A stretch of DNA of 64,000 nt from a virus. Its lineage: Duplodnaviria > Caudoviricetes. Positions 3,314-52,516 of this stretch are shown piece by piece (position 1 is the stretch's first letter; every line of letters starts with the position of its first letter). The notes under the pieces are model-generated. The model was given only the letters and a program-made list of their open reading frames with translations, did no database searches and was not told where the DNA came from. The DNA is taken from the IMG/VR virus record IMGVR_UViG_3300035208_002115, one strand, 5' to 3'. The position numbers and the translations under genes were made by a program.

Positions 3314-3547
3314 ATGAAATTTTATATGTGGCAGATTTTAATATTTAAAATTTTATATAAAAAATATTGTAAATTAATATGTCATTGGAGTGGTCATATA
3401 TATACCGCATTCTGTAATAACGGTATTATTTTCAACGATGAGGTTTATCCATCAATTTTTTATGTTTGTTCAAGATGTAATAATTCATTATCACCAGAAG
3501 AATATAAACAGTATGAACGTAAACAAAAAATAAAAACAATCCTATAA
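3314..3547 (+). CDS. C-tag protein, Zn-binding (CxxxGH...CxxC)
   Basis: Ends ERKQKIKTIL; paralog of 3553. Confidence 0.7.
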   Translation: MKFYMWQILIFKILYKKYCKLICHWSGHIYTAFCNNGIIFNDEVYPSIFYVCSRCNNSLSPEEYKQYERKQKIKTIL

Positions 3548-3552
3548 TATTT

Positions 3553-3822
3553 ATGTTCAATGTTCCCCCACATAAAGAATTTTCACATAAGTTCACTTTT
3601 AAAATTATATGTGACTGGTTAAAATATAATTTCGTTATCCTTAGAATAAAATATAATTGTTCTATTCATGGACATAAATATAAATTACTTTATGAAAAAG
3701 GTAATTTTGGAAAAATATCATTGAAAGACGACATATATCAATGTTCAGTTTGTCAAAAAAGAATAATGGGAAATGACCTTTTAATGGAAGAACGAAAAAG
3801 AAAAATAAAAAGCATACTATGA
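3553..3822 (+). CDS. C-tag protein, Zn-binding (CxxxGH...CxxC)
   Basis: Ends ERKRKIKSIL. Confidence 0.7.
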   Translation: MFNVPPHKEFSHKFTFKIICDWLKYNFVILRIKYNCSIHGHKYKLLYEKGNFGKISLKDDIYQCSVCQKRIMGNDLLMEERKRKIKSIL

Positions 3823-4307
3823 TAGTAATATACAAAGAAAATGATTACCCTATTAAGTCATTAAAAAATGAACAGAAATATTTAATTAAAACTATCACTG
3901 ATGATAATGTTGAATTGTTTAACATCCGAGGGATATTTAATAAATCTAATTTTTTAGATGAAGACGGGAATGAGATAAAGAGCGAAAAATATACCAATAA
4001 ATATATCATCACTAAAAAAAATACAGAACGTGGTGACAGGGTATTGTGTGTTGATAATTTTGGTGATATGCGATTAGGTGTAGGTAGTGTTTATAAAGTA
4101 GAAGATGTTGTACATTACATGGATAAATCATTTAAATTAGATTTAGTACATGATACAGATTTTATACCACAGTCAGGCTGGATATATACTACCATGAGAG
4201 GTGCTGAATTTAATCCAAATGCATTTATTAAGTTCAATAAAGAAACAGAACGATATATAAAATGTTTGAAAATTTTTGATGATATAAACGTTTTAAAATT
4301 GGAATAA
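3819..4307 (+). CDS. C-tag protein with GDxVxC beta domain
   Basis: GDRVLCVD...YKV; ERYIKCLKIF near the C-terminus. Confidence 0.65.
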   Translation: MIVIYKENDYPIKSLKNEQKYLIKTITDDNVELFNIRGIFNKSNFLDEDGNEIKSEKYTNKYIITKKNTERGDRVLCVDNFGDMRLGVGSVYKVEDVVHYMDKSFKLDLVHDTDFIPQSGWIYTTMRGAEFNPNAFIKFNKETERYIKCLKIFDDINVLKLE

Positions 4308-4308
4308 T

Positions 4309-4590: not shown

Positions 4591-4961
4591 GTATATTTTT
4601 TGATGTTGAGAAAGGTAGCATTCTTCATAAAAAAATGCTAATATGGAGTTCTTTTTCAGTATTATTTGCATTAATTGTTAATACTATTATATTGTGGTGT
4701 TTGACTTTTCATAATGGTATGGATAAAAAACCATCTTCTACAAACAGCACAATAGTCGGAATATACTGTATATGGTTTTTTTATAGTTTATTCACAATAA
4801 AAGAGATAAATAAAAAATCATTATTAACACATGCGCCATTGACTATACCAATTTATACTTTCTTATTCTTTATTTACAGATACCTACGTAATAAATATCC
4901 ATGTGTAGGTGATATAAACATTAAACGTAAAATATTAATAAAAAGATGGGGATTAAAATAA
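4587..4961 (+). CDS. membrane protein (paralog of 4946)
   Basis: About 3 hydrophobic segments; shared xGSxLxxK and RNKYP motifs. Confidence 0.7.
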   Translation: MSIFFDVEKGSILHKKMLIWSSFSVLFALIVNTIILWCLTFHNGMDKKPSSTNSTIVGIYCIWFFYSLFTIKEINKKSLLTHAPLTIPIYTFLFFIYRYLRNKYPCVGDINIKRKILIKRWGLK

Positions 4962-5323
4962 AACAAATAAAAGAGGGAAGTGAACTATTTCATAAGATAA
5001 ATAGTTATACCGTAAAAACATTCTACCTATCAATTTTAATTCAATTTATAGGCATTATTGTCTCTTTATTAATAATACACAACGTATATTATTTTATCGC
5101 AAGTGTATCGTATTTTATATGGATAATAATGTCACTGGTTTTAATAAATAAAGTAGTGGCAAATTTTTCTTTTATAAATTTAAAATTTTTTCCCGTAATA
5201 ATAATAGTTATACCAATTTTATATTTTTATTATTTTTTATTTAGAAATAAATACCCAGCATCAAAAGATGCTGATTATTTAAAGAATTTTTATAGGATGA
5301 GAAAGATAAAAGATATCTTATGA
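4946..5323 (+). CDS. membrane protein with C-tag
   Basis: Hydrophobic segments, RNKYP, ends YRMRKIKDIL. Confidence 0.7.
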   Translation: MGIKIKQIKEGSELFHKINSYTVKTFYLSILIQFIGIIVSLLIIHNVYYFIASVSYFIWIIMSLVLINKVVANFSFINLKFFPVIIIVIPILYFYYFLFRNKYPASKDADYLKNFYRMRKIKDIL

Positions 5324-5324
5324 T

Positions 5325-6182: not shown

Positions 6183-6186
6183 TTAG

Positions 6187-6447
6187 ATGAAACATAATAT
6201 TCCCAACCCACATAGAGATTATCTAAATGATTATTTAATATATTTCAAAACAGAAAAAGGTTTCGAATTATATTACGAAGCTTATGCTTTATATTTTGAA
6301 CAAAGTCCTAATCAATTTAGATGGACATTTCCAACATTTATTAGAAACCCCACTGGTTCTGAACGTGATAAGTATCTGAATTTAGTTAAATTAAAACATA
6401 GAAAAGAAAAAATTGAAGATATATTAGATGAAACCCCCACAACTTGA
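6187..6447 (+). CDS. C-tag protein, LYxxAYxxY family
   Basis: ELYYEAYALY...TFPTFI...HRKEKIEDIL. Confidence 0.7.
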   Translation: MKHNIPNPHRDYLNDYLIYFKTEKGFELYYEAYALYFEQSPNQFRWTFPTFIRNPTGSERDKYLNLVKLKHRKEKIEDILDETPTT

Positions 6448-6652
6448 TTATTATGATAGTAAAGGCACTCTTATTGACTATGACCTTTATTGGATGGCGT
6501 ACCATAATTATATTTACGAATGTAAAATGGGTGAGCATGTTTATTCTTTTACATATTTTATTAATAATGGTGTAAGTGATAAATATATTATAAATACCAA
6601 ACAAACTCACAGGAAATTAAAAATAAAAGAAATATTTAGTGATATAGAATAA
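6428..6652 (+). CDS. C-tag protein, LYxxAYxxY family
   Basis: DLYWMAYHNY...SFTYFI...HRKLKIKEIF. Confidence 0.7.
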   Translation: MKPPQLDYYDSKGTLIDYDLYWMAYHNYIYECKMGEHVYSFTYFINNGVSDKYIINTKQTHRKLKIKEIFSDIE

Positions 6653-8272: not shown

Positions 8273-8279
8273 TACGAAT

Positions 8280-8612
8280 GTGATTAAAGTAGACTGGGAT
8301 AATCTAAACAAAGATGATAAGGAATTGATGTTAAAATTCCGTTATATTATTGATGCGTATGATGATGAATCGATTGATTCCACTAAAATAACTGAAGAAA
8401 AACGTGAATTTGTTACAGCCATTCACGATTTTTTAAATTATATACAAAGTTTCGAAAAGGCTCATGATGATGTTATTGGTCACATTTTAAAGTATCAAAG
8501 GCATATTATTGAAAATTTTGTTGTAAAATTCTATACAACTATTGATTTGAAAATATTCCGAAAGAAAAAACTTGATAATATATTCAATGAAGAATTTGAT
8601 ATTATTAAATAA
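8280..8612 (+). CDS. C-tag protein
   Basis: FRKKKLDNIF near the C-terminus. Confidence 0.7.
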   Translation: MIKVDWDNLNKDDKELMLKFRYIIDAYDDESIDSTKITEEKREFVTAIHDFLNYIQSFEKAHDDVIGHILKYQRHIIENFVVKFYTTIDLKIFRKKKLDNIFNEEFDIIK

Positions 8613-9387
8613 ATTTGTTAAATTGTTTAATGATAAATTCAAAGTCGTTATAGATATGAATTTTGATTTTAAAAATGAATATCATAAAGATAATACGACT
8701 TTTTATATTACATATGGACTTGATTATAACTATAACCCAGTTGCTGTTAATAAGATAAATGAATATGAAAGATATATTGATAAGCATCTTATGAATTTCA
8801 ATATTGATGAAACAGAAAATCAACCGCTTCAAGATGAAATAAATGAGGTTTATAAAAAAATACATTCAATATTAATTGAATATGGTTATCTTTCATTTCA
8901 AAAAACTCTTGATACATACCAATTAGTACAAAGAAACTGGTTTAGAATATTAAAAGAATATGATTCATATGGTTCTTCATTAATTTATGATGAAGAATTT
9001 AAAATTGCATATTCTATTTATAATAATTATGATGATATAGCATGTATTAACCGAGATAAATTAACTATCTACACTTTATTCATCATTCGGGAAGATTGGG
9101 TGTGTGAAGTTGGAGACGTTTGCTATAATATAGATAAGCAACAATTTTATTTGAATAATTATAACACATTTTATTTCCCAGAAGAATTAAGAAAAATTCC
9201 TTTAGATGTTTTTTCTGGAAAAGCTGCATTTTATTACCATCCTGAAATAAATACTGTTGTATTAAAATGTGATGATTTTACAGTCACAAAAATACCGTCT
9301 TCAATTATTCATTCCAATGGTTATATTAACTTGGTGTATGATAAATCTTTATTGAGAAAAATAAAAATAGAAAATATTAATATTTAA
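8587..9387 (+). CDS. C-tag protein
   Basis: Ends LLRKIKIENINI; ATG start at 8587 preferred. Confidence 0.7.
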   Translation: MKNLILLNKFVKLFNDKFKVVIDMNFDFKNEYHKDNTTFYITYGLDYNYNPVAVNKINEYERYIDKHLMNFNIDETENQPLQDEINEVYKKIHSILIEYGYLSFQKTLDTYQLVQRNWFRILKEYDSYGSSLIYDEEFKIAYSIYNNYDDIACINRDKLTIYTLFIIREDWVCEVGDVCYNIDKQQFYLNNYNTFYFPEELRKIPLDVFSGKAAFYYHPEINTVVLKCDDFTVTKIPSSIIHSNGYINLVYDKSLLRKIKIENINI

Positions 9388-10812: not shown

Positions 10813-11160
10813 ATGTTTCATACACCACCTAATAATTTACCCCTATCTCTGCGTGTAGCTGCCCAAACAATTGAATTGGATTATATACAAATTACACCAA
10901 CAACCGTTAAACAAAAATTATACTGGTTTATTATATTCAGACCAATAATATATAAAAAAGAACACAATTTAGTTATTGATTTTACACCATCGCAACATTT
11001 TGAAGAATTCTCAGTTAATAAAACCTCGGATATATTAAACAAAAAAATAAGATTAGCATTACAAAAAAATAAGAACGCTGTTTTTTATGTATATTTAATA
11101 TTTGATATTCAACATTATCCATTTTTTTCCATTATAAAAATGGATTACCAAATTAAATAA
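10813..11160 (+). CDS. hypothetical protein
   Basis: 115 aa ORF. Confidence 0.6.
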   Translation: MFHTPPNNLPLSLRVAAQTIELDYIQITPTTVKQKLYWFIIFRPIIYKKEHNLVIDFTPSQHFEEFSVNKTSDILNKKIRLALQKNKNAVFYVYLIFDIQHYPFFSIIKMDYQIK

Positions 11161-13970: not shown

Positions 13971-14192
13971 TTATTTTAGTAAATCATTCATAGTATTTAT
14001 ACACTCAATCTTAGTTTTAAACCAAAATATTTTATTACTATCATCAACTAAAACAAAACCACTTTTTCTAATGGTGTATTCGGAAGTTACTGCAAAATAC
14101 TTATTAATATTTAAATAAATTCCATTCTTAACGTCCTCATTAAATTTCTTAGTTTGAACTTCATTAAATTTTACAACCGACATTATTTTCAT
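13971..14192 (-). CDS. hypothetical protein
   Basis: 73 aa ORF coupled to the upstream gene. Confidence 0.55.
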   Translation of the reverse strand: MKIMSVVKFNEVQTKKFNEDVKNGIYLNINKYFAVTSEYTIRKSGFVLVDDSNKIFWFKTKIECINTMNDLLK

Positions 14193-14473
14193 GATTCTTT
14201 AAATATTTTTTTCAATTTTTCTTTTCTTATTAACCTTTTAATTTCATTTAAATAAATATCAATATCGCTTGTGTGGAGTGTCAAAAACCCATAAAAAGTT
14301 AAACTGGGAATATCCTCATTTTCATTTATATACATAATATAAGCTTTTATATATAAATATATATCACCATCTATACCAGAATTTATGAAAGAATTTTTAT
14401 AGTAATTCATTAATTCATCGGAAATGCTCTTTAAATATAATAAGTTTGTTATTGGGTCTCGGAGAATTTCCAT
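14189..14473 (-). CDS. C-tag protein, LYxxAYxxY family
   Basis: LYIKAYIMY...TFYGFL...IRKEKLKKIF. Confidence 0.7.
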   Translation of the reverse strand: MEILRDPITNLLYLKSISDELMNYYKNSFINSGIDGDIYLYIKAYIMYINENEDIPSLTFYGFLTLHTSDIDIYLNEIKRLIRKEKLKKIFKES

Positions 14474-14727
14474 ATCTCAGTTATTTTTTTCTTCCTCTCA
14501 TAATTTTTAAACTTCTGAATGTATATATTTAGTTTTTCAGATATTAAAAAACCGTAAAAGGTATAATTAAGTTGTTCAAATGCATTTTTCCATTTATAAT
14601 ATTGGTAAGCTTCAACTGATAATACAAAATCTGATTCACTATCAATTAATGAGGTCGTATTATTTTGTTCAATAAAATCAATGAATTCATAACGATATTT
14701 AGCATATTCTATATAATCCAGATTCAT
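14449..14727 (-). CDS. C-tag protein, LYxxAYxxY family
   Basis: EAYQYY...TFYGFL...ERKKKITEIW. Confidence 0.7.
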   Translation of the reverse strand: MNLDYIEYAKYRYEFIDFIEQNNTTSLIDSESDFVLSVEAYQYYKWKNAFEQLNYTFYGFLISEKLNIYIQKFKNYERKKKITEIWKFSETQ

Positions 14728-14927
14728 AATTCATTATTAAATATTTCTTTTAATTTCGATTTACGTAATGACATATTAGCTTTATTGATATCATCTTGTG
14801 ACATAATAGACTCCACATACTTGCTAAATGATGCTGCATCAACTGAACATCTATCTAAATAGATAAAATATGCAGTTTTATAAAGTTCAAAATTATTATA
14901 ATATTTTTTTAAATCAAGATTATCCAT
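14724..14927 (-). CDS. C-tag protein, LYxxAYxxY family
   Basis: LYKTAYFIY...SFSKYV...LRKSKLKEIF. Confidence 0.7.
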   Translation of the reverse strand: MDNLDLKKYYNNFELYKTAYFIYLDRCSVDAASFSKYVESIMSQDDINKANMSLRKSKLKEIFNNEL

Positions 14928-15234
14928 CTAAAATTTGTTCTATTTTAGCTTTTCGAATTAAAAGGTTAGCCTGTTGTAAATAAGGAGACTTGTTTTTTGA
15001 TGTAATAAATCCATAAAAAGAATATCGTCCTGTATCTTTTGCTTTTTCAAAATAAATATCATAAGCAATACGATATATATGATATTGGTCTTTATCATCA
15101 CTGATTCTATCAAAAAAATACTGACGTTCCTCTTTTACAACAACCGCCTTAGAATTTATATATTCGTTTGAATTTTCATCTTTTAAATATCGATAACTAA
15201 AAAGACTATATTGGACACCATTAGTCAATTTCAT
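14920..15234 (-). CDS. C-tag protein, LYxxAYxxY family
   Basis: IYRIAYDIY...SFYGFI...IRKAKIEQIL. Confidence 0.7.
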   Translation of the reverse strand: MKLTNGVQYSLFSYRYLKDENSNEYINSKAVVVKEERQYFFDRISDDKDQYHIYRIAYDIYFEKAKDTGRYSFYGFITSKNKSPYLQQANLLIRKAKIEQILDG

Positions 15235-17064: not shown

Positions 17065-17556
17065 TTAATCGTTTAGAATTTCTTGGATTTTTAATCTCCT
17101 TAATTTAACATTATTCATTGTAAAAACCAATGCGTTGTATGAAAAATGTTGACTTGGTTTTGTTATTTGTATAAGTTTATCTATTTCTTCTCTGTATACA
17201 ATTTCATCATTATTATTAAAACCATGAGTATATCTCATACCTGATTTTTCATCAATAAATATAAATGGTATTAAACAATCAATAATTTCTGATGAAAAAA
17301 CTTTTTCATTAATATAAATAAGATGGTCTTTCATTCTTTCCATTAATAATGTTATATTATCACCCCATGAAAATTTATTATGATGAAAAGAATAAAATGT
17401 GAAATTATTTATTTTAGTTTCTTTTAAATATATCGGAATACCGTAATATTCCATAATTGCTGTTCTTCTTTGTGAGTCAGTTGCATAGAAACCCAATTTT
17501 TTATAAACATAGTTATCTAAACCATATTCAAATAGTGTTTTTTTAATAGTACTCAT
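17065..17556 (-). CDS. C-tag protein
   Basis: Ends LRRLKIQEILND. Confidence 0.7.
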   Translation of the reverse strand: MSTIKKTLFEYGLDNYVYKKLGFYATDSQRRTAIMEYYGIPIYLKETKINNFTFYSFHHNKFSWGDNITLLMERMKDHLIYINEKVFSSEIIDCLIPFIFIDEKSGMRYTHGFNNNDEIVYREEIDKLIQITKPSQHFSYNALVFTMNNVKLRRLKIQEILND

Positions 17557-18023
17557 AAATCAAGAATTTCTTTAATTTTTTCCAGCCGTGCTAAATTAAT
17601 AGGTAATGAATTCAAAAAATCTTCATTAGCTTTTTTATTTGCATCAAGATATTTTTGTTTTTTAATATCACTGAAATACTTTTTGAGAATGATATAATAA
17701 CCAGTTCGTAAATCTTTATTAAACCAAAAATTGAATATGGATAAAAAATGAAATTGTACCCCGATATTTTTACTTACAACTTGTACCTTTCCAAAAATAT
17801 TTCTTTTATGAATCTTAATGACAACCATCGGATATTCAACCATAAGATAATTATAATAAAAAGAATATCCATCACCACTTTGGTATTTATGTTCATATTG
17901 AGAAAAATCCTTATATAAGGATGCTATTAGAATTTTTCGATAAGTACTTTTAGTCTCTTTAGATGGTTTCATATGTTTACTTAATAAAAAGCAAATATAT
18001 GAAATTCCACCCAAAAATGACAA
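17553..18023 (-). CDS. C-tag protein
   Basis: Ends LARLEKIKEILDL. Confidence 0.7.
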   Translation of the reverse strand: MSFLGGISYICFLLSKHMKPSKETKSTYRKILIASLYKDFSQYEHKYQSGDGYSFYYNYLMVEYPMVVIKIHKRNIFGKVQVVSKNIGVQFHFLSIFNFWFNKDLRTGYYIILKKYFSDIKKQKYLDANKKANEDFLNSLPINLARLEKIKEILDL

Positions 18024-30600: not shown

Positions 30601-30747
30601 ATGACCGATGTACTGATGAATATTAGTGAAGAACATAAAAAAATATTAATAACTAAAATAGAATCAATATTTGAAAATGACCCATTGGTTAGGAAGGCCA
30701 AATTAAAAAAAATATTTAACGAAGATGGCATTAGACTTATCGACTGA
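30601..30747 (+). CDS. minimal C-tag protein (48 aa, not in ORF track)
   Basis: MTDVLMNISEEHKKILITKIESIFENDPLVRKAKLKKIFNEDGIRLID. Confidence 0.6.
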   Translation: MTDVLMNISEEHKKILITKIESIFENDPLVRKAKLKKIFNEDGIRLID

Positions 30748-33848: not shown

Positions 33849-34016
33849 ATGCCAAATAAGAATAAAATAATAATAACATTTAATCCAGTAGATTCTTCTA
33901 TATATGATTACATGGATAGCTGGAGAAATTATATAAATGATGAAAATAAAAAACGGCTTGAAAAATTAAGAGCTGAAAGAAAAGCTAAAATAAAAGAAAT
34001 TTTTAAAAATATATAA
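33849..34016 (+). CDS. C-tag mini-protein (55 aa, not in ORF track)
   Basis: MPNKNKIIITFNPVD...RAERKAKIKEIFKNI; TACATTTG at 33837-33844. Confidence 0.7.
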   Translation: MPNKNKIIITFNPVDSSIYDYMDSWRNYINDENKKRLEKLRAERKAKIKEIFKNI

Positions 34017-34037: not shown

Positions 34038-34193
34038 GTGGAAGAAGAATATTTAAAAACATATAATAAAAGAACCAGTAAAATATTTTCTAATTTAAAA
34101 GAATATTATCGTTCAGATGAAAAATCCTTCAAAATAATTATTTTATTAGAACGATATTTAAAGTTAAAAAGTATTTTCAAAAATTTTGATTAA
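34038..34193 (+). CDS. C-tag mini-protein (51 aa, GTG start, not in ORF track)
   Basis: VEEEYLKHII...LLERYLKLKSIFKNFD. Confidence 0.6.
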   Translation: MEEEYLKTYNKRTSKIFSNLKEYYRSDEKSFKIIILLERYLKLKSIFKNFD

Positions 34194-34198: not shown

Positions 34199-34363
34199 AT
34201 GCCAGCATTAATAAGACTTTCAGATTTACAATCTGTCCAACCATTATCAAAACCGAGTGGACATTTACATTATATAGATTTTTTTTATGAAACTATATCA
34301 GAAAAAAGGAAGAAGAAATTAAACGAAATATTTCCAGAATTTAAAAATGAAAACAAAAAGTAA
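34199..34363 (+). CDS. major-capsid-fragment mini-protein with C-tag (54 aa, not in ORF track)
   Basis: MPALIRLSDLQSVQPLSKPSGHLHYIDFFYETISEKRKKKLNEIFPEFKNENKK. Confidence 0.7.
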   Translation: MPALIRLSDLQSVQPLSKPSGHLHYIDFFYETISEKRKKKLNEIFPEFKNENKK

Positions 34364-34556
34364 ATCTAAATTACAACAAATAAATAATTCAATTAATACA
34401 ACAGTGTCAATACCAACTGAACATTTTAATGTTACAGTTAGAGCAATTTATCCTTATGATTATCCAGATTTTAATTATTTTAAAAGAAAAGAAAAACGTG
34501 AACAACGATTAAAAAAATTAAGTGGATTATTCCCAGATTTTAAAGAAAATGTTTAG
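34347..34556 (+). CDS. C-tag mini-protein
   Basis: KREQRLKKLSGLFPDF. Confidence 0.7.
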   Translation: MKTKSKSKLQQINNSINTTVSIPTEHFNVTVRAIYPYDYPDFNYFKRKEKREQRLKKLSGLFPDFKENV

Positions 34557-34836
34557 TCACGAATTATATAATTCAGTTATATCACAGATTGGGGACACTC
34601 CGATTGACGGAGGTGTATATTTACCACTTGATACTTTTTCAGATGTTGATTTTAATAGTATAATTTTTCCAGTGGCGATGAAAATTGCTGCTCAAACAAT
34701 AGGTCTGAATTTAATATCAGTTCAGCCTATGGAACATGGGGTTGATTATGAAAAAATAAAACGAGAAAGAGTACGTGAACAACGAAAGAAAAAAATAGAA
34801 GAAATATTTCCTGAAATGAAAAAACATGAAAAGTAA
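34549..34836 (+). CDS. major-capsid-fragment mini-protein with C-tag
   Basis: FPVAMKIAAQTIGLNLISVQPM, then REQRKKKIEEIFPEM; ATG at 34549 preferred. Confidence 0.72.
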   Translation: MFSHELYNSVISQIGDTPIDGGVYLPLDTFSDVDFNSIIFPVAMKIAAQTIGLNLISVQPMEHGVDYEKIKRERVREQRKKKIEEIFPEMKKHEK

Positions 34837-35014
34837 TTTCACTCTTAATATAATACAAAAAGCTATCCGAGATGGATTTACAACTTTAACAATTGATTGT
34901 GAATTAAATTATGACCAACTATGGTTAAAAGTAAAACGGGAAATTATTCAGGAACATAGAAAACAAAAAATAGAAGAACTATTTCCAGATATAAAAAATA
35001 ATAATAAACTATGA
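34826..35014 (+). CDS. C-tag mini-protein
   Basis: QEHRKQKIEELFPDI. Confidence 0.7.
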   Translation: MKSNFTLNIIQKAIRDGFTTLTIDCELNYDQLWLKVKREIIQEHRKQKIEELFPDIKNNNKL

Positions 35015-37531: not shown

Positions 37532-37725
37532 CAAAACGTTGTATAGTTTGTGGTAAGGAACTTGAAGTGTTATATCCAGATGATGGTAACAATAATCGCT
37601 TAATAAAAGATGGGTTAACTGAAATAATTAGTGCATCCTATGGTAGTAAATTTGATGGGGTGATGCTTGAAATAACTATCTGTGATGATTGTATACAAGA
37701 AAAAATAGATAACAAAATCATTTAG
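37528..37725 (+). CDS. Zn-finger small protein
   Basis: CIVCG...YGSKFDG...ICDDC. Confidence 0.65.
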   Translation: MTKRCIVCGKELEVLYPDDGNNNRLIKDGLTEIISASYGSKFDGVMLEITICDDCIQEKIDNKII

Positions 37726-38218
37726 GAATTTTAAAGAAAAAATCATCGTTCTTATCACGCATTTCTTTTTTAAATATATGTTCAATCTTAGCCTTTCGAG
37801 AATACGTTTTAGATTCATGTTCGGTTAGTACTCTGAATGGTGAAGATGTTGTTTCGTGATAAATTCCGTCTATATAAATATCAATTTTTCTATCATCTAT
37901 TTTATTTAAAAAATAGAAAGGTTTAGCTTCATAAAGCGTACCAGCTTTTATTTTATCACCAACATCGACTAAAGCCAATACAGTTTTATATTTAAGTAAG
38001 TCATCACTATCAAAACGATTGAACCGATATCGATTTGGATATGTTTTATATTCTTTATTTTCTAAAGGTGAAAACCATTGCTGCTTAAAATACCCCGATT
38101 TACCAATAAATGATATTTTTTTATTTAAATTATCAATATATGCAACCGTATGTGTAGAGAAATATTCTATTTCTTTATATTTACGAACTAAACACTTGAC
38201 TTTAAATATAAATTCCAT
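37718..38218 (-). CDS. C-tag protein
   Basis: YSRKAKIEHIF near the C-terminus. Confidence 0.7.
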   Translation of the reverse strand: MEFIFKVKCLVRKYKEIEYFSTHTVAYIDNLNKKISFIGKSGYFKQQWFSPLENKEYKTYPNRYRFNRFDSDDLLKYKTVLALVDVGDKIKAGTLYEAKPFYFLNKIDDRKIDIYIDGIYHETTSSPFRVLTEHESKTYSRKAKIEHIFKKEMRDKNDDFFFKIPK

Positions 38219-40409: not shown

Positions 40410-40724
40410 TTATTTTAGAATATCTTCTATCTTTGCTTTTCTTGTTGCATTTTTATCCAAAATAAAACGTTCGGCTATGAAAATTTTATCTGGGAATTCT
40501 TTTAAACTTATGATTTGAGGTGTATCAAGATGTTTATTATTGGATAATATTCTTATTTCAAATGCTTTTAATATTTCATCATCACAAGAACAATCTCGTA
40601 ATACTGTATAATTATCACACCATGACAAACACTTATAATCATCATATATTACATAGAAACGATTTTCAGCATAACCAGCCATAGTAGAAAATGTTATTAT
40701 ATCACCAACTTTAAATTCTTGCAT
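40410..40724 (-). CDS. C-tag protein, FKVGD family
   Basis: FKVGDII...AERFILD...TRKAKIEDILK. Confidence 0.7.
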   Translation of the reverse strand: MQEFKVGDIITFSTMAGYAENRFYVIYDDYKCLSWCDNYTVLRDCSCDDEILKAFEIRILSNNKHLDTPQIISLKEFPDKIFIAERFILDKNATRKAKIEDILK

Positions 40725-41038
40725 TATAATATATCTAAACTATTAATTTTTTTCTTTCTTGTTTCAGTCACATTTAATACAAATCTATCAGCTTTGAATA
40801 TATGTTTTGTAAAGAATGCGTTAATATCTACAACAAGTAATTCTTCTAAAGTGATAATTTCAAAAATAGCTACATCATGTATTTGTTTATGAATTGACAA
40901 TACTGTATAATTTTCACCCAAGGTTAATAAAACATAATTATCAGGTATTGGAATTTTATATTGATGTGTTACAGGATTATAAAAACCATGTTCTTCAGCA
41001 CAATCTATACATGTTACAACATCACCAATCTGAAACAT
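40724..41038 (-). CDS. C-tag protein, GDxVxC family
   Basis: MFQIGDVVTCID...LTLGENYTV...ADRFVL...TRKKKINSL. Confidence 0.7.
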   Translation of the reverse strand: MFQIGDVVTCIDCAEEHGFYNPVTHQYKIPIPDNYVLLTLGENYTVLSIHKQIHDVAIFEIITLEELLVVDINAFFTKHIFKADRFVLNVTETRKKKINSLDIL

Positions 41039-41223: not shown

Positions 41224-41445
41224 TTAATGCTTTATAATTTCATTTGCGTAAAATTCACAAACATATCTTTGATATTTTGGACGAACATAAATATAAAAAC
41301 CGTCAATACTAATTATTCTTCCGAGTATTGGACTTGGATTATTTTTTAAATCGAATGGAATATTTCCTATAATTTCTATTATATCACCAACTCTAAATCG
41401 AGGTCGGTATGGAATTATATTGACTAAATAAGAATCAATCTCCAT
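41224..41445 (-). CDS. small SH3/KOW-like protein
   Basis: FRVGDII...GRIISIDG..IYV. Confidence 0.6.
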   Translation of the reverse strand: MEIDSYLVNIIPYRPRFRVGDIIEIIGNIPFDLKNNPSPILGRIISIDGFYIYVRPKYQRYVCEFYANEIIKH

Positions 41446-41653
41446 ACAAAATTTCTTTTATTTTAAGCATTCTCTGATGTTGTAATTGTAATTTTTTAGA
41501 ATTGTTAATCAAAAAGTCTGTTTCTTTTTTCATTATATCATATAAACAATAATGACAGACGTATTCTCCACGTCTTTTGACTAAATTATATTCTGTCCCA
41601 CAATTACAGCAAGTTTTCATATCATCGTTCTGTTTTACTCCCACATCTTTCAC
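41435..41653 (-). CDS. C-tag Zn-finger protein
   Basis: CCNCG...CHYC; QRMLKIKEIL. Confidence 0.65.
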   Translation of the reverse strand: MKDVGVKQNDDMKTCCNCGTEYNLVKRRGEYVCHYCLYDIMKKETDFLINNSKKLQLQHQRMLKIKEILYGD

Positions 41654-42018: not shown

Positions 42019-42261
42019 TTATTCCAAAATACCAAGACTCTTTATCTTTTTTTTCCTAAGATTTGGTATAAGTTGTTTATGACAATCTGGACAAAAAACA
42101 CCTGATTCTATTTCAACATATTGCATGAGTTCAAAATGATTTAGTGGTGTGTCACAGTATTTACATCTCCAATTTCTATCCAATGACGATAATGTCATAT
42201 TCTTACCGTAATCTGGTAATTCATTAACTCGCCAACTATGGTCACCAAGTCTACTCATCAA
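42019..42261 (-). CDS. C-tag Zn-finger protein
   Basis: CKYC...CPDC; LRKKKIKSL. Confidence 0.7.
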   Translation of the reverse strand: MMSRLGDHSWRVNELPDYGKNMTLSSLDRNWRCKYCDTPLNHFELMQYVEIESGVFCPDCHKQLIPNLRKKKIKSLGILE

Positions 42262-42466
42262 AAAGTTCTTTAAGTTTTAAATATCTTTCGTGTAATTTTG
42301 TGAGTGTTGCACTAAAAATTGTCCAACCATTATTATAATAAATAAACATGGTTTGTGTATGCAATTCATAATACACATCATATTCTTGTGGAAAATCTGG
42401 TTTATGATGATGCCATTTAAAGCCACCATTATCAAGAAGTGAATCAATATGATTTTTATTACCCAT
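42251..42466 (-). CDS. C-tag protein
   Basis: Ends ERYLKLKELFDE. Confidence 0.7.
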   Translation of the reverse strand: MGNKNHIDSLLDNGGFKWHHHKPDFPQEYDVYYELHTQTMFIYYNNGWTIFSATLTKLHERYLKLKELFDE

Positions 42467-42775: not shown

Positions 42776-43042
42776 TTACAAATCATCAAAAATGTTTAAT
42801 AATTTTTGTTTGCGAAATTTGACTAATGAAATAAAATGTTTTTTACTATGAAAATTACTGGTTTCTTCTAACATAACTATATTTTCTAACGCATTATATG
42901 TTACATCGGGATTATCTTCTTCACTAAAATCAACTCTAATTGTGTATATTTCATGTAATTTAATATATTTATTAGGTTTATCTTTGTCCCGTTCTTCTTC
43001 TTCTTTTATACAAACTACTTTATCACCAACTTTATATTTCAT
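42776..43042 (-). CDS. C-tag protein, GDKVVCI family
   Basis: YKVGDKVVCI...IYTI...HFISL.KFRKQKLLNIF. Confidence 0.72.
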   Translation of the reverse strand: MKYKVGDKVVCIKEEEERDKDKPNKYIKLHEIYTIRVDFSEEDNPDVTYNALENIVMLEETSNFHSKKHFISLVKFRKQKLLNIFDDL

Positions 43043-43269
43043 TTTAGAATTTCATTTATTTTCAATTTCCTAAATTCTTCCATAGTAATAAATCGTTCTT
43101 TAGAACAAATATCATTTACACCATGAAGAAACAATCCAGTAATCTCAATATCACGAAAATTAAACAATATATTTGTATCTACTGTGTAAATTTTATACAA
43201 TTCCAACGACATTTCACCATAAAATTTTGGTTCAATACAAACTATTTTATCCCCCTCATTAAAAATCAT
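43039..43269 (-). CDS. C-tag protein, GDKVVCI family
   Basis: GDKIVCI...LELYKIYTV...RFIT..EFRKLKINEIL. Confidence 0.72.
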   Translation of the reverse strand: MIFNEGDKIVCIEPKFYGEMSLELYKIYTVDTNILFNFRDIEITGLFLHGVNDICSKERFITMEEFRKLKINEILK

Positions 43270-43513
43270 TTAATATATTCTTTATTTTCTGCATTCTGAA
43301 TTCATTAATTGAAATAAAATGTTCTTTACACCATAAACTACTTTGATATCTTATCGAATTATTATGTGTATATTTCGCTTTTATGGTTAAACATCCAGCT
43401 ATAACACCTTCAACTATATAAATCTTATTTAATTCCAATTCTATTTCTGGTATAGAATCAGATAATTTACAAGCATCAACAGAAACTACTTTATCACCTT
43501 TTTTAAAAATCAT
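43259..43513 (-). CDS. C-tag protein, GDKVVCI family
   Basis: MIFKKGDKVVSV...LELNKIYIV...HFIS..EFRMQKIKNIL. Confidence 0.72.
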   Translation of the reverse strand: MIFKKGDKVVSVDACKLSDSIPEIELELNKIYIVEGVIAGCLTIKAKYTHNNSIRYQSSLWCKEHFISINEFRMQKIKNILNDF

Positions 43514-43736: not shown

Positions 43737-44864
43737 TTACTTTTTAAAATCTTCTTTATCAACACTCACATGCCACACTTTAAAATACTTTTCATAAATA
43801 TCGAATATATCATCATATTTAATATTATCAATATAATTTTCAACATTCCAGTTTTCAGGCATATAACAATGTTCTACATTCTTATATCTTTCTATTTTTT
43901 CCCTTTTAAACTTAGTCATCAGAGAATCTTTAACAACATCAAAACGTTCTGTTGTTAAATATTTTTTTGGATTGTTTAATATCTCATCTAATGTTTCCGT
44001 TAATTCTTTAACATTATTATTAGAGGTTAATGTATGAATATACATGAACCCACAAGAATCCGTCATTTTTTCTATATCACTCTGAACAAAATAAACCAAT
44101 CCACGTTTCTCTCGTAATTCAGAATATAATGGAGATTGTAGTCCAAACCCAAGCATTTTTAAAATGAATGTTACTTGGTAAAAATCATCCAATAAAACAT
44201 TTGAAAAATAAATAATAGATGTTTTTTCTTTAAATGTGTTAGATTTCTGACGAATAAAACTTTTATTATTCAATATTAAATCATAATAAGTATAATACTT
44301 ATCAGCATCTTCAGCAAATTTTATATTTTTATTTTCATATTTCTTACTTTTGGAAACATTGATTATTAAACTTGGATACTTAAATTGTATTTCAAAATAA
44401 TTCTTACAATCTTCATACGTAAGTTTCTTTAAATCAGATAAATCACCAATCGGGCCATAATTATCAAAATATTTTCTGGTTAAATTATAAAAATGGGCAA
44501 CTGGTTGTTCATTGAAGGTATCTCGATATTCTTCAATAACTATTTTCTTTTCATTCTCATATTCTTCTTTAGTAATATTAAACACTGATAAACGGTCAAT
44601 TATTTTATCTCTATATTTATCAAGTTTTTCTTCGAGACCTTGGAATTCAAATGTTATAATATCATTAGTAGTAAATGCATTCCATTCGATATCATCCCTA
44701 CTAAAATCGTCAAAAAACTCATCAACACCTTTACAAACTAAATGTTCCATTAGATGACTTATACCCCGTATACCTTGTTTCTCATTTAAGGTTGAGCCAC
44801 GATGTACTATATAAAAACCTGATAAATCCGTTTCATTTGGCAAATTAATAATTTGATTTTTCAT
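43737..44864 (-). CDS. M16 family zinc metallopeptidase
   Basis: GS..E.....GISHLMEHL (HxxEH), NAFT, EKKIVIEE, SPLYSELREKRGLVY. Confidence 0.9.
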   Translation of the reverse strand: MKNQIINLPNETDLSGFYIVHRGSTLNEKQGIRGISHLMEHLVCKGVDEFFDDFSRDDIEWNAFTTNDIITFEFQGLEEKLDKYRDKIIDRLSVFNITKEEYENEKKIVIEEYRDTFNEQPVAHFYNLTRKYFDNYGPIGDLSDLKKLTYEDCKNYFEIQFKYPSLIINVSKSKKYENKNIKFAEDADKYYTYYDLILNNKSFIRQKSNTFKEKTSIIYFSNVLLDDFYQVTFILKMLGFGLQSPLYSELREKRGLVYFVQSDIEKMTDSCGFMYIHTLTSNNNVKELTETLDEILNNPKKYLTTERFDVVKDSLMTKFKREKIERYKNVEHCYMPENWNVENYIDNIKYDDIFDIYEKYFKVWHVSVDKEDFKK

Positions 44865-45139: not shown

Positions 45140-45730
45140 TTATTTTAATATATCTCCGAAAATTTCTATTATTTTTTCTTTTCTGAGAATTCCTTTCATA
45201 TTCACGAAATCATTTAATGTTAAATAATGTAATATTAAATTTTTATTATTTAATATATTATTATATATTCTCTTAATTTCAATGAATTTTTTATCTTCCT
45301 TTGTTTCTAAAAAAACACATTTAACATTATTATCATATAATGGTTTAATATCATCTGGGAATTTATATTTAGAAGAAAAATTATCGAATATAAATATTGA
45401 TATCCCTAAATTTTTATATCCATATAATATTTCATTATATTTATCTGTTATATAAATGGTATTACCATTATTCCTGATAACATTTTTTCTATAAGTTACC
45501 CAGCCATACCAATCAATATATCTTTTACATAAAATTTCATCACTCTGTCTTCCATCAGGTGTGAGATATACGCCATTGGTTTTATTATCACTACAAAATT
45601 TAAGTATATAATTTATACCACAGGTAGTCATACCAACTTGTCTTGGTGTGAAGAACCAATGATTCCCATTTGTTACAACGTTTATAAAATATTGGTAAAA
45701 ATCTGTATATGATATGTTTATATCGTCCAT
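45140..45730 (-). CDS. degenerate terminase-ATPase-like domain with C-tag
   Basis: FYQ...PRQVGMTT (cf. gp17 YQ and SRQLGKT), IFIFDN (cf. Walker B hhhhDE), ends LRKEKIIEIF. Confidence 0.6.
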   Translation of the reverse strand: MDDINISYTDFYQYFINVVTNGNHWFFTPRQVGMTTCGINYILKFCSDNKTNGVYLTPDGRQSDEILCKRYIDWYGWVTYRKNVIRNNGNTIYITDKYNEILYGYKNLGISIFIFDNFSSKYKFPDDIKPLYDNNVKCVFLETKEDKKFIEIKRIYNNILNNKNLILHYLTLNDFVNMKGILRKEKIIEIFGDILK

Positions 45731-46234: not shown

Positions 46235-46897
46235 TTATTTTTTATGTTCATAATTATCTATTACCTTTCTTATTGTAATGGTATACCCAAACATACTTAA
46301 AACTTCTAATAATTTATTTAAAATTATATTAGATTTACCTTGTTCTATCTTTCTTAATACAATAAATGCAATCCCTGTTTTATTTGCGAAAACTTCTTGG
46401 GTAAGACCAGTTAATTTTCTTCTTTCAGAAATAAATCGACCAATTTCAAAATATCCGTTTGAATTGTCAACCTTTATTAAATCATCTAAATCTGGTCGTA
46501 TAGTTGCAGGGAGTATTAAATTTTCATTTAAAAGAATGCACCCTTCTTCAATACATTTGCTAATCCAAAATTTTTCACGAATACCAATATCCAAGTAATC
46601 TTGAACTACTTCTAAGATTTCAATAACTGGTTTATGATTTAATATTTTTAAATCATTCACCCACTCTTTAATTTTATTAGAATGAGAATTTGATAAATGT
46701 TCCATTGGTCTTAACATCCCCCGTGTTGATTTACCAATATAATGTATTCTATTAGTGACAGGACATTTTAAGCAATATATTATTTTTTCCATAAAAATAT
46801 TTAGGTCTTCTGACTCCCTGAATTTTTTGATTATGTCTAATGTATCATTCAATATTTTTTTCATTGAATAATTTTTCCAATTTAAGAAGTCTTTCAC
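46235..46897 (-). CDS. GIY-YIG nuclease fused to XRE-type HTH
   Basis: IIYCL...YIGKS...R...H...E..WI...LLN; RRKLTGLTQEVFA..TGI......KIEQG; start may be 46792. Confidence 0.8.
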   Translation of the reverse strand: MKDFLNWKNYSMKKILNDTLDIIKKFRESEDLNIFMEKIIYCLKCPVTNRIHYIGKSTRGMLRPMEHLSNSHSNKIKEWVNDLKILNHKPVIEILEVVQDYLDIGIREKFWISKCIEEGCILLNENLILPATIRPDLDDLIKVDNSNGYFEIGRFISERRKLTGLTQEVFANKTGIAFIVLRKIEQGKSNIILNKLLEVLSMFGYTITIRKVIDNYEHKK

Positions 46898-47285
46898 CTT
46901 GAATACCGATGTCAGATATCATCTCGTCAAACGCTTGTTTTTTTAATTTTTTATACACATCCTCAGAACTATAATCAAAATGAGACCTAACTACGGCCTC
47001 TAATGCAACAGATAATACTTCTGATTTTACTATTTTAATTTCTTCACCCAACTCATTATACCAAAATATACCATTTTCTTTAATAACTAATTTCACATTA
47101 TCTTTTATACTGAAAATTATTTGATTTTTTTCACATAAAATAGGTGCGCCAATATTTATTTGGTCGTCTACATATGACTTAGTGACGGGTGATGAAAATA
47201 AAGCGTTTGATGCTAATAATCCTGAAATTCCACCCCAGTCTTCCACACATTCATTATACCAATTTTCAAATGAATTTTCACTCAT
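46845..47285 (-). CDS. C-tag protein
   Basis: ERLLKLEKLF near the C-terminus; internal PVTKSYVD. Confidence 0.65.
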   Translation of the reverse strand: MSENSFENWYNECVEDWGGISGLLASNALFSSPVTKSYVDDQINIGAPILCEKNQIIFSIKDNVKLVIKENGIFWYNELGEEIKIVKSEVLSVALEAVVRSHFDYSSEDVYKKLKKQAFDEMISDIGIQGERLLKLEKLFNEKNIE

Positions 47286-47356: not shown

Positions 47357-47737
47357 TTATTCCTTTGTAATGTGATACATATTACTGACAAAAGGATTTA
47401 TTTCTCTATTCATCCAAACTGTTCGTTCAGGATATATTTTTATTATACTATTATTAAAACATTCTCTAACTACTTCTTTTATTAATGCACGGCTTTCATA
47501 TTCATTGAGATTATATTTTTTTTCTATAACATGTTGTAAGTTTTCTAAACTATACATCAAATAATTTTCTTCTTTGACATAATTGAAATAAACTTTATCA
47601 TCTATTTTAAAAATAGATATGTTTTTATCATATTTAGATTCGCTTATTTTTAATTTTTTAATAATATTCCAGATAAAAGTTCTCGGACTTCTGGCTTCCT
47701 GAATCTTATAAATAATATCAAGTATATCTTCTTCCAT
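47357..47737 (-). CDS. hypothetical protein
   Basis: 126 aa ORF coupled to the upstream gene. Confidence 0.65.
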   Translation of the reverse strand: MEEDILDIIYKIQEARSPRTFIWNIIKKLKISESKYDKNISIFKIDDKVYFNYVKEENYLMYSLENLQHVIEKKYNLNEYESRALIKEVVRECFNNSIIKIYPERTVWMNREINPFVSNMYHITKE

Positions 47738-50700: not shown

Positions 50701-51438
50701 ATTAATATAGGTATGTTCATTCGTTATCTCAATGAAATCGTGTGTTTTCGACACAATATCCCACATTACATAACCATGACCATAAGGATGTTCACCAAAA
50801 TTTTGTTGAATCAAAGAAGACGGATAAACTACATTATCCAATTTCCCAAACTTTTGATAAAGGTGAATATCTCCCATCATTGTAAAATCACCTTTAAAAT
50901 CACTAACACTGAAATAATTCAGGTCTTTCATAGGTTCACCATTATGCGATAAACAACCTGATATCGGGTCGTGAAATAAATCTATATATATTTGATTCTT
51001 ATCCTTAATATGTGTTTTATCTTCCCAAGGATTTCTTAATTCTCTATCCCTATGATTCCACACTGCAAATGTAATATTGTCATATTGATAAAATCCAGTC
51101 TTATTATAATAAGTTATTTTTGGATTATTAATCATTTGTGTCACTGTCTGTATGACATCAACACGAGAAAGATTCTTTTTTTGTAAATCGTGATTACCTC
51201 TGGTGATTACAACTGGTGCAATTCGAGTAAGATTATTAAGAAAACTCGCCATTAATAATTGGGCTTCTCCTGATAAATCTATATAATCATGGTATAAATC
51301 ACCAGCTATTGTAATTAAGTCTGGTTTATTTTTTCTTAAATCATCATACAACAAATTGAATTGTCTGACATACATTTCATGTAATACAGGAGATTTTCTA
51401 ATATGAATATCAGCAAGGTGAGCTATTTTACGAATCAT
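47737..51438 (-). CDS. fused Mre11/SbcD nuclease and Rad50/SbcC ATPase (gp47-gp46 fusion)
   Basis: ADIH, AGDL, GNHD, GDIH; NFKSYG, GENQQGKTT, CITC hook, SSGKE, IIFDE, IIEH. Confidence 0.92.
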   Translation of the reverse strand: MIRKIAHLADIHIRKSPVLHEMYVRQFNLLYDDLRKNKPDLITIAGDLYHDYIDLSGEAQLLMASFLNNLTRIAPVVITRGNHDLQKKNLSRVDVIQTVTQMINNPKITYYNKTGFYQYDNITFAVWNHRDRELRNPWEDKTHIKDKNQIYIDLFHDPISGCLSHNGEPMKDLNYFSVSDFKGDFTMMGDIHLYQKFGKLDNVVYPSSLIQQNFGEHPYGHGYVMWDIVSKTHDFIEITNEHTYINFELSENTDYDNLNLSSKYIKSEPEIKVKWRDIKANVNRDNEIKIRKYIKEKYGLDKLVVERFPIYTNISDIQMVNEGINVNDLSVQRAIFEEYLKANGYDVDFIKEVLKIDDLVNSRLDVNSERVQIEWRIESFWFDNFKSYGDGNIIDWNYINGIIQIHGENQQGKTTILDAITYILYGITTSTTKEEKFGDNRFINNKRDLDYCKGGSVLNINGEKYTMFRKTERKWKRNKADGIGSINSILEFYRGTEMKPENLINGEQDKDTQKLINDALGNFKDFIRLALTTADNLNDLLSVDRSIFVDSLIKDAGYDIFETKMSEYKSIQKEEKDERVTINVLEEETKIETYNNQIAELTKSKDEIDSKIIEVKGFKDQRNKEKESKIKELHKVDEDLQGINIETLNKNIVFNNTKIQENKDSIIKIDTEITGLPSTFDHESFNKKSADYDDKKNKITTLRIEVTELGSSIKTYETNLSQIDEKISNIVKEKVTEINTEIAKITNNIENKKKDVIQLVKDNMADLKAELQTCGNEIQNLTTKQDSLKENATKLKDEISDLENSKNCITCGRPLDSLEPEHIEHIRERVNKIKEDLTKLQDQYNLLETNKKPYRDKSKYILEKSEKIKNKNFEDDEVLKVEYDNALLFINKNEEIIKKHNTDIELLNQNLLESFDDIQQKIKSIKDNENTYRTKLTELTASKNTKTEEGVKLTTESNTLKEEVEKLKITKENFESRKDKVNTKEKLALENDNLSLKTKNDKMLIDKYNSQKGNILENESIQLLIDAIEEKMAADDVIIESFNTQRDDVIKDIPLVELNISNIEKNIEKYKEQIRKDEISNAYLKAVHRDGIPTFLLKKSIELLNTDLNNLLTNVDFTVFFDDELKLRLSTKNRLDVSQNAIESSGKERTFIAVALKIALRKINTNSKCDFIIFDEIMGKLLNNSVDQFIEFLTDISKNIGKLIIIEHNHPIPYDALIEVAKDEEGVSTLTLV

Positions 51439-51502
51439 GTTATTAAATTATTTTTAAATAATATATTCATTAAAACGATTTTTGTTTATAATAGTTAATA
51501 AA

Positions 51503-52516
51503 TTAATCACCAAAACCCAACAATCGTAATTTAATATATCGATTACCTTTTCTGACTAACTCATCACCATCACAATCCAAAAAATAATAAGTGTCAGATT
51601 TTAACTGGAACAACAATTTTTCCAAGTCCTCATCATTCTTTAGTGCAACGGCAGTCTTTCCACATTTATAACATCTTTTGAATTCTTTGATATTATTTTG
51701 TTTTAAAAGGTCTTTAATAAAAAAATCATCTTTAATTTCTTTATAATCCCAATAATCATCCTCACCTTTATTTTTTAACATGATATATTCTTCATTCATA
51801 TAAACGATGATGTAATTATATTCTTTGGTCTCCAGATAATCTTTGAATAATTTTCTGGCAGATTCTCCGAATTTATATGTAATACCTTTCAATAACATAG
51901 ATTGTTTATAGTATTCATTAACATTAAAATCCAGTTTTATTGGATTCTTTTTATCCTTATTGATGTATTTCATAACAAACATTTCCTTAGTATCTTCCTC
52001 ATTAACATGAATATCAGTATATCCAATATATTCACTTCGGTGTTCAATCTCAGGATTTTCATCTTTATATTTTTTATATGTATCCCAATTATCATCAAAA
52101 TATGGAAACATAATCAATAAAGAAGATTTTACTTTACCCATATCGGCAAAATATTTCATTTTAATGGGTTTGTCACCTTTAAATATTTTATATTGAATAA
52201 TATCAGGGTGTGTCATTATTTCACCGTATTCTTTAGTGCAACATCTTAAACTTGTAATGCTTGAACTGAATTTACTACCATTATAAACTGTTCTTATCTT
52301 TTGAAATTTATCATCAAATATATCAGTATTATTATTAAATTTCAAAACAACAGTACCGTTGTCCTTTTTATCTACAACTGTTAAAATAACATCTTTTTCC
52401 AAATATTCACCCCATTTAATATTTAAAGCAAATTTAGTTTCATAATAACTAACACTTTTGTCAACAAGGGTTATCAATTGTTGTCCGACTTGTAGTTCTT
52501 TTAATGAAAGTTTCAT
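51503..52516 (-). CDS. hypothetical protein with C-tag
   Basis: Likely start 52516 (MKLSLKEL); ends NRYIKLRLLGFGD. Confidence 0.7.
   Translation of the reverse strand: MKLSLKELQVGQQLITLVDKSVSYYETKFALNIKWGEYLEKDVILTVVDKKDNGTVVLKFNNNTDIFDDKFQKIRTVYNGSKFSSSITSLRCCTKEYGEIMTHPDIIQYKIFKGDKPIKMKYFADMGKVKSSLLIMFPYFDDNWDTYKKYKDENPEIEHRSEYIGYTDIHVNEEDTKEMFVMKYINKDKKNPIKLDFNVNEYYKQSMLLKGITYKFGESARKLFKDYLETKEYNYIIVYMNEEYIMLKNKGEDDYWDYKEIKDDFFIKDLLKQNNIKEFKRCYKCGKTAVALKNDEDLEKLLFQLKSDTYYFLDCDGDELVRKGNRYIKLRLLGFGD

Follow-up and report, generated by a model that had tools for sequence, protein, structure and literature searches.

We consider a stretch of 64,000 nucleotides (the window; bases 189,370-253,369 of a 675,678-bp, 27% GC phage contig) in which many otherwise unrelated genes end in the same short pattern, R-x-x-K-[IL]-x-x-[IL]-[FL], called the tag in what follows. 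About 177 of some 1,100 genes genome-wide, about one in six, end in this pattern where one or two are expected by chance. The motif is genuine: selection acts on it as a peptide, it behaves as a module, and it extends across the clade. One common protein partner for it is probable, and the explanation that we find best overall, held tentatively and at somewhat less than an even chance, is that the tag docks a library of early phage proteins on a phage hub made of a four-transmembrane (4-TM) protein and a AAA+ ATPase.

A C-terminal tag on one gene in six

We number the tag as R1, position 2, K4, [IL]5, [IL]8 and [FL]9. Its consensus is [IEL]-R-K-x-K-[IL]-[KE]-[EK]-[IL]-[FL], with R and K present in 98% of the copies each and not interchanging, positions 6 and 7 often acidic, a conserved span of about 12 residues and usually one to seven residues following. 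Tags are called with a position weight matrix at a score of at least 8, using internal windows and shuffled C-termini as controls; the gene caller is a simple codon model, and the gene and tag counts are approximate. At this threshold 175 of the 1,098 called genes are tagged; the expected number is 1.2 by the internal windows and 2.4 by the shuffled C-termini. Scores over the gene C-termini have a bimodal distribution. Three residues before the stop, the strict pattern is found at 45 per 1,000 positions, compared with 0.17 per 1,000 internally. A comparison of this kind had been proposed as a check in an earlier, sequence-only reading of the window, and the C-terminal motif indeed stands far above the controls, about 100-fold. 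All eleven tags quoted in that reading are found at their open reading frames (ORFs). Its estimate of about 34 tagged ORFs is slightly high, with 31 clear copies counted between 3314 and 47285, on both strands as described, and the ORF at 51503-52609, where its range ended, fits the tag weakly.

The tagged genes lie on both strands, are mostly shorter than 200 aa (some are little more than the tag) and are clustered in arrays, with 80 adjacent pairs against 28 expected. The tail after the tag ranges in the window from 0 to more than 15 residues and ends in E, K, L, D, I, F or V, with no fixed last residue; about ten copies genome-wide sit 15-236 residues before the stop. A protein family at L195:9162-9764, L198:6937-7614 and L203:3656-4333 carries two tags, one internal and one terminal. 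Searches of Pfam, PHROGs, NCBIfam, PADLOC and PDB sequences return no family for the tag itself, and no description of it was found in the literature searched, which includes two genome papers (PMC7162821, PMC12607003; the term 'C-terminal' appears in neither) and mostly leaves subscription journals outside its coverage. An exact-pattern scan of viromes gives 16 true matches, at least nine of them C-terminal and all on AT-rich contigs; another such scan was swamped by Ser-codon matches.

Selection acts on the peptide

The next question is whether the peptide or the underlying DNA is conserved. The codons differ between copies, as had been claimed: all six Arg codons are present and synonymous usage is near that of the genome. 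The motif is also frame-specific, since only 6 of 2,526 non-gene ORFs score at least 10, three of these being real window genes overlooked by the caller. Orthologues were compared with a 640-kb sister genome, where 91 pairs are tagged in both members and R1 and K4 are identical in all 91, a conservation that is partly circular, although only 14 pairs are discordant. The dS of the tag core in orthologue pairs is 0.89, and that of the genome 0.85-0.91. The tagged bodies evolve faster than untagged small proteins yet remain under purifying selection (dN/dS 0.33 vs 0.18 and identity 57% vs 76%, p 3e-18). An element in the DNA or RNA that mimics a peptide, such as a translation enhancer or a recombination site, would suit the 83 of 177 tagged genes that overlap the next start codon. 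Six Arg codons, a frame-specific motif, a dS at the genome level, a tag-to-start distance that spans 16-106 nt and is not fixed, and 39 genes with no close co-directional neighbour argue against such an element, which is largely refuted and to which we give almost no credence.

An Acb3 homologue shows the tag as a module

The tagged gene at genome 636116-636829 (minus strand) encodes a homologue of the anti-CBASS protein Acb3 (PF25187; Pfam E 2.6e-25, 89.5 bits vs a cut-off of 27, model positions 20-241 of 245). It is a member of the family and, from its sequence, a candidate CD-NTase inhibitor; Acb3 is described as such an inhibitor, and CD-NTases are cytoplasmic (10.1101/2025.07.23.666291). 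The tagged protein differs from the known family in that its tag lies beyond the family end, in a C-terminal extension of about 17 residues. Four homologues, encoded by relatives of this phage or of unassigned origin, add a tagged extension, whereas 146 of 151 stop at the family end, and because the extension is missing from these 146 the tag is a module. At this locus (L030:16116-16829; genome 636116, minus strand) the Acb3 homologue is followed by three tagged mini-proteins.

Tagged genes look early and avoid CTS leaders

Transcription units with a tagged gene more often have a Bacteroidota -7 promoter element, a difference that is significant in four of the five genomes compared. Units whose proteins have the leader of the capsid targeting sequence (CTS) type are marked by the AATATATA element, and this is rarer in tagged units in four of the five, G001 being the exception. 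The mutual exclusion of tag and CTS leader, noticed earlier in the window, holds: none of the CTS-leader proteins of the window is tagged, and in six related genomes pooled the tag is on 7 of 308 such proteins vs 507 of 3,714. From the promoter types and the avoidance of CTS leaders we infer that the tagged proteins are early and cytoplasmic. CTS-like leaders in the window are found, for example, at 335, 21257, 54146-58458 and 59394; genome-wide about 64-74 genes have one, with a TATATA upstream element in 44 of 52 units.

Distribution across megaphages

The capsid protein of the genome is T4-type, 62% identical to that of LR756501 (735 kb) and 50-52% to those of LR756502, LR745206 and LR756504, all four being Mahaphage genomes with predicted Bacteroidetes hosts (PMC7162821). 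The capsid marker and a quick capsid tree group our genome with genomes of 634-735 kb, within the Mahaphage clade. The metagenomes listed with the best read matches come from landfill and groundwater, possibly its source, and no RNA data set is among the matches listed. The tag is on 3-12% of the genes of seven other megaphage genomes. Its C-terminal frequency is 15% in this genome, 12% in G001 and LR756502 and 5-8% in G006, G007 and G009; in samples of LR745206 and LR756504 it is on 26 of 287 genes (9%) and 6 of 217 (3%). LR756501 is tag-free, with the motif on 2 of 1,019 genes vs 1.3 expected, and the Lak samples have no tagged genes. When mapped on the capsid tree, the tag is carried by a basal genome and by two clades, and a third clade lacks it, a distribution read most simply as a single loss.

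The consensus varies by lineage. Position 2 is K in 58-60% of the tags of three genomes and D in 35-50% of those of three others, with similar proteome composition, and a whole lineage has D in place of K at position 2 and L in place of F at position 9. Such a lineage-wide switch at position 2 is what one would expect were the consensus set by a single pocket in each lineage. Few tagged bodies are common to different lineages, so each lineage has built its own library on the same tag.

The tagged bodies

With the tags removed, 168 of the 177 bodies have no paralogue. The recognisable ones are few: the Acb3 homologue, ankyrin repeats (genome 110900), a receiver domain whose tag is borderline, parts of Gp23 and of a family B polymerase, and KOW/SH3-like barrels. 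The classes that the sequence-only reading had named include the SH3-like barrels (the 43039 protein has a TM-score of 0.62-0.65 to KOW and T4 Y07B clusters) and the capsid-like fragments (the 34549 protein copies residues 105-131 of the major capsid protein, 63% identical, E 9e-7). Membrane and Zn-finger classes are present but minor and not enriched (a TM-like stretch in 5 of 177 vs 61 of 924), and the absence from core enzymes is not absolute, with an internal copy in a 257-aa protein (genome 453100) and a degenerate one on an ABC ATPase (145257). The sister genome keeps the capsid-segment copies at 34199 and 34549, and two more genomes have tags on other segments of the capsid protein; the copied segment may correspond to the T4 Gol region. 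We rejected a decoy library as a general explanation of the bodies, since real cases exist with no enrichment.

The tagged ORFs of the window are listed below; rows rest on the ORF unless otherwise given, and "sister" marks those that rest also on the sister-genome comparison.

3314..3547, +: 77-aa Cys/His protein; tag 3518-3544; tagged orthologue in sister genome
3553..3822, +: 89-aa Cys protein; tag 3793-3819; sister
4946..5323, +: 125-aa protein; tag 5294-5320; sister
6187..6447, +: 86-aa protein; tag 6400-6426
6428..6652, +: 74-aa protein; tag 6611-6637
8328..8612, +: 94-aa protein; tag 8559-8585; sister
8587..9387, +: 266-aa protein; tag 9355-9381; sister
14189..14473, -: 94-aa protein; tag 14201-14227; sister
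14449..14727, -: 92-aa protein; tag 14470-14496
14724..14927, -: 67-aa protein; tag 14739-14765
14920..15234, -: 104-aa protein; tag 14929-14955
17065..17556, -: 163-aa protein; tag 17074-17100; sister
17553..17972, -: 139-aa protein; tag 17562-17588; sister
30601..30747, +: 48-aa protein; tag 30691-30717
33849..34016, +: 55-aa protein, first in six-gene tagged array; tag 33978-34004; sister
34038..34193, +: 51-aa protein; tag 34152-34178; sister
34199..34363, +: 54-aa protein, short segment like own capsid just past residue 128 (by eye); tag 34307-34333; kept in sister genome
34347..34556, +: 69-aa protein; tag 34506-34532
34549..34836, +: 95-aa protein with the 27-aa capsid copy; tag 34783-34809; identity and E as above
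34826..35014, +: 62-aa protein; tag 34958-34984
37718..38218, -: 166-aa protein; tag 37772-37798, 17 residues before stop; sister
40410..40724, -: 104-aa protein; tag 40416-40442; sister
40724..41038, -: 104-aa protein; weaker tag 40733-40759; sister
41435..41620, -: 61-aa Zn-finger-like protein; tag 41447-41473
42019..42258, -: 79-aa Cys protein; tag 42031-42057
42251..42466, -: 71-aa protein; tag 42260-42286
42776..43042, -: 88-aa SH3/KOW-like barrel; tag 42788-42814
43039..43269, -: 76-aa SH3/KOW-like barrel; tag 43045-43071; TM-score as above
43259..43513, -: 84-aa SH3/KOW-like barrel; tag 43271-43297
45140..45730, -: 196-aa protein, weak terminase ATPase domain likeness (E 0.01 own terminase, E 0.012 PHROG terminase); tag 45158-45184
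46845..47285, -: 146-aa protein; tag 46866-46892

Several loci stand beside these. An untagged 115-aa protein at window 10813-11160 also holds the capsid segment copied at 34549 (E 1e-4). Nine tagged mini-genes lie beside the capsid gene (L026:998-3260; genome 540998-543260), several with short likeness to capsid, prohead protease, scaffold or polymerase/helicase motifs, and an array of about ten tagged proteins of 106-130 aa with K-L-G-L-type variant ends (L008:1078-6311; genome 141078-146311) includes the ABC ATPase with the degenerate tag. The M16 peptidase at window 43737-44864 has an intact HxxEH motif, tagged genes on both sides and 83% identity in the sister genome. The 1,233-aa protein encoded at 47737-51438 combines a phosphoesterase-like motif near its N-terminus with a Walker A motif (residue 406) and is apparently a Mre11/Rad50-type fusion (by eye). 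The phage also encodes J-domain proteins, at least three in number and including a complete DnaJ (L012:804-1847, L013:6921-7571, L023:7287-7862), through which it may steer host DnaK.

A candidate hub

We turn to what the tag might bind. Among the genes of this phage the candidate is the 4-TM gene at genome 162895-164016, outside the window, whose 373-aa product combines four TM-like helices, in which polar residues are invariant, with a long coiled-coil hairpin and a winged helix. This phage shares 36 genes with G001 and LR756502 that are missing from LR756501, of which one of unknown function, the 4-TM gene, has full-length homologues in all five tag-rich genomes compared; a profile search finds no homologue in LR756501. 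Its presence in LR745206 and LR756504 predicted tags there, and both were found tagged at the frequencies given above. Over records of at least 240 kb it is present in nine of nine tag-rich and none of five tag-poor ones. By this co-occurrence the 4-TM protein is a possible partner for the tag, one that we regard as a good deal less likely than the existence of some common partner. Three of the candidate genes missing from LR756501, at genome 453100, 572630 and 502144, were profiled as rival hubs and rejected: they are missing from the tag-bearing LR756504, and two have matches in the tag-free Lak.

The 4-TM gene forms a conserved minus-strand operon with a Bcs1/YjoB-like AAA+ gene (L009:2895-6067; genome 162895-166067), the two lying one gene apart in five genomes; in another lineage the gene immediately before it encodes a ClpB-like AAA+ whose N-terminus is very short (L329:1959-5119). 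Foldseek matches of the AAA+ (genome 164883) are all Bcs1 at the top, then YjoB, at E ~1e-7, with YjoB aligned over 21-334. Its model (pLDDT 60) matches Bcs1 and YjoB over the full length and p97/VAT over the AAA domain only, which suggests a Bcs1-like N-domain followed by an AAA domain. Neither sequence nor model has a TM segment, and the protein appears soluble like YjoB and without the membrane-basket helix of Bcs1. Bcs1 translocates a folded protein through a membrane, and a role as substrate-specific chaperone has been proposed for YjoB (PMC12219900, PMC9565160). The 4-TM protein has no match in Pfam, PHROGs or PDB and no clear solved fold; its Atlas matches are unnamed viral clusters, and its C-terminal part resembles GntR-type winged helices. 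A predicted complex between the tag peptide and the 4-TM protein scores 0.00, which counts neither for nor against binding. The AAA+ alone was rejected as the hub: its homologue is kept in the tag-free LR756501 and in many jumbo phages.

Smaller phages add a further link. A small phrog_32048 protein, often directly upstream of the 4-TM gene and ending in a tag-like helix, is present at 63 of 75 4-TM loci; the end matches the tag at positions 1, 5, 8 and 9 and partly at 4. The tag may have spread from this protein as an ancestral ligand, or the likeness may be coincidental within one syntenic clade. L400:260-1542 and about 60 similar loci (L330-L404) of 160-180 kb freshwater phages link the 4-TM gene to a GLGD...CGC phrog_32048 protein; in phages of this size the 4-TM gene is often followed by a PolA-like, an Hsp20-like and a GroES-like gene (these three named by eye).

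A docking model and its alternatives

Combining this information, we propose a model in which the tag is a short amphipathic docking helix. By its pattern, R1 and K4 would make specific salt bridges, while residues 5, 8 and 9 would fill a hydrophobic groove on a single partner. The phage would attach this helix to many early proteins, a large and rapidly changing library in which each N-terminal body would engage a target, as the Acb3 member, ankyrin repeats, SH3/KOW barrels and capsid-segment copies suggest, so that body and tag together would form an adaptor bringing targets to a common hub. The 4-TM protein, placed in the inner membrane with its coiled coil periplasmic and its winged helix cytoplasmic, would keep the tagged proteins at the membrane together with their cargo, and could pass them to the neighbouring AAA+. 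The sequence-only reading had suggested docking or addressing to one hub; its general form is supported by the modularity in Acb3, the invariant R1 and K4 on fast bodies and the concerted switch, and the putative 4-TM hub, a candidate by co-occurrence, was not named there. In its fullest version, which we consider rather unlikely, 50-180 early proteins of freshwater and landfill megaphages, immune inhibitors and capsid decoys included, would plug via the tag into a membrane hub whose AAA+ sequesters or remodels host defence proteins.

Several facts weigh against the 4-TM/AAA+ hub and its adaptor library. A known anti-defence family is matched by only 1 of 150 tagged proteins, and core-protein fragments are not enriched among tagged proteins (6 of 376 vs 33 of 1,735). 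The tag-free genomes form one clade on the capsid tree, so that the co-occurrence of 4-TM gene and tag is in effect one concerted loss plus outgroups; two of the five tag-poor records are fragments, about 16% of shared genes are absent from LR756501 regardless, and LR756501 retains the AAA+ homologue. The 4-TM family is common in complete 160-180 kb phages with no tag expansion, and is thus not sufficient. Position 4 of phrog_32048 is K in 18 of 44, and its tag matrix score is below zero. The winged helix suggests that the 4-TM protein serves instead to tether DNA.

The partner could instead be a AAA+ protease or chaperone of the host (ClpX, ClpC/ClpB, Lon, FtsH or an adaptor), with the tag as a degron for early proteins or as a hook through which phage adaptors deliver host defence proteins to degradation. 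This is unlikely taken alone and nearly as likely as the 4-TM/AAA+ hub: the motif evidence and early-type promoters are the same, the tag spacing is like that of the helix binding the p97 N-domain (PMC5389986), the consensus switch could follow a host switch, and the only phage proteases evident in motif scans are the M16 peptidase and the prohead protease. The variable tail, the lack of a fixed last residue and the internal and doubled copies are unlike free-carboxyl degrons, and complete loss in LR756501, also a predicted Bacteroidetes phage, is unexpected for a universal host machine. A helix with no dedicated hub, one that binds lipids, nucleic acid or itself as a condensate or compartment signal or a stabiliser of mini-genes, would agree with a basic amphipathic character, proteins mostly under 200 aa and clustered genes. 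It is improbable, since R1 and K4 do not interchange, as they might in a generic lipid- or DNA-binding helix, and acidic residues at positions 6-7 and a genome-wide K to D change at position 2 would not be selected by generic anionic surfaces. Invariant residues and a lineage-wide switch are best accounted for by a single docking partner. Were this partner a non-proteolytic host or phage machine (RNA polymerase, ribosome, sliding clamp), the 5-8-9 hydrophobic spacing would recall the PIP-box and T4 clamp-binding ends, and early timing would suit host takeover; yet 170 competing ligands, some of them membrane proteins, are hard to reconcile with one essential site, LR756501 has the same replication core and no tags, and a nascent-chain signal is at odds with the variable distance to the stop. 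We rate this possibility lower still. A virion-loading, injection or export signal has precedents in sorting tags such as the T4 CTS and type IX secretion (T9SS) C-terminal domains, and near-exclusion with CTS leaders could mark a second route. Export had been among the earlier suggestions, and we disfavour it, at a very low probability, because tagged units look early, are depleted in the late-type AATATATA element (G001 again excepted), avoid CTS leaders and include an inhibitor family with a cytoplasmic target.

Comparison with known systems and significance

The tag marks 3-16% of megaphage genes, most of which are unannotated, as one functional class. In each genome it singles out about 180 candidates for host takeover and anti-defence, anchored by Acb3, and their study comes down to one question, "what binds the helix?"; the tag-free LR756501 and the K- and D-type lineages offer natural contrasts. 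Shared docking motifs are known in principle, and none at this scale in a phage was found in the literature searched.

Like the T4 CTS, the tag is a brief address at one end of many phage proteins that have nothing else in common, and CTS-like leaders are abundant in the same genome; the CTS, however, is N-terminal with late-type promoters, whereas the tag is C-terminal, has host-type promoters and is nearly exclusive with it. Free C-terminal degrons (ssrA, Tsp/Prc) have fixed residues at the carboxyl end, and the tag has none, with a tail of 0 to at least 15 residues and internal copies. The T9SS domain is a folded unit of 70-80 aa on proteins with a signal peptide; the tag spans about 12 residues, and no such Pfam or NCBIfam family is among the top matches of 150 tagged proteins. 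T4 gp43, gp55 and gp33 bind the clamp by an acidic, hydrophobic C-terminal motif, three core proteins on one phage hub, while here about 177 accessory proteins carry a basic motif. The phrog_32048 protein ends in R-x-x-[K/other]-L-N-x-[LI]-[FV]-P beside a 4-TM gene in smaller phages, but it is single-copy, its position 4 is not invariant and its family was not found in the megaphages searched.

Two further parallels are adaptor libraries. The VCP-binding motif (VBM) of p97/Cdc48 cofactors has the helical consensus EhRRRRLxhh (PMC5389986). The analogy lies in a short basic helix on unrelated proteins, basic-then-hydrophobic spacing and diverse adaptors on one AAA+ hub; the VBM is eukaryotic, has Arg where the tag has its invariant Lys, and binds p97, while the phage AAA+ is Bcs1/YjoB-like. 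The tag, with K4 and no Arg run, departs from the VBM consensus and agrees in spacing alone. Poxvirus ANK-PRANC and F-box adaptors join a variable substrate-binding body with ankyrin repeats to a constant C-terminal docking module for the host ubiquitin ligase. The arrangement of variable body and constant C-terminal module is shared, and ankyrin repeats occur here at genome 110900; the poxvirus module is folded and F-box-like and its bodies are paralogues, unlike the 168 of 177 singletons here. If the hub is a phage membrane protein, this would be a system without known counterpart and categorically new; if the adaptor reading is true, megaphages would have the phage counterpart of the F-box or VBM adaptor libraries.

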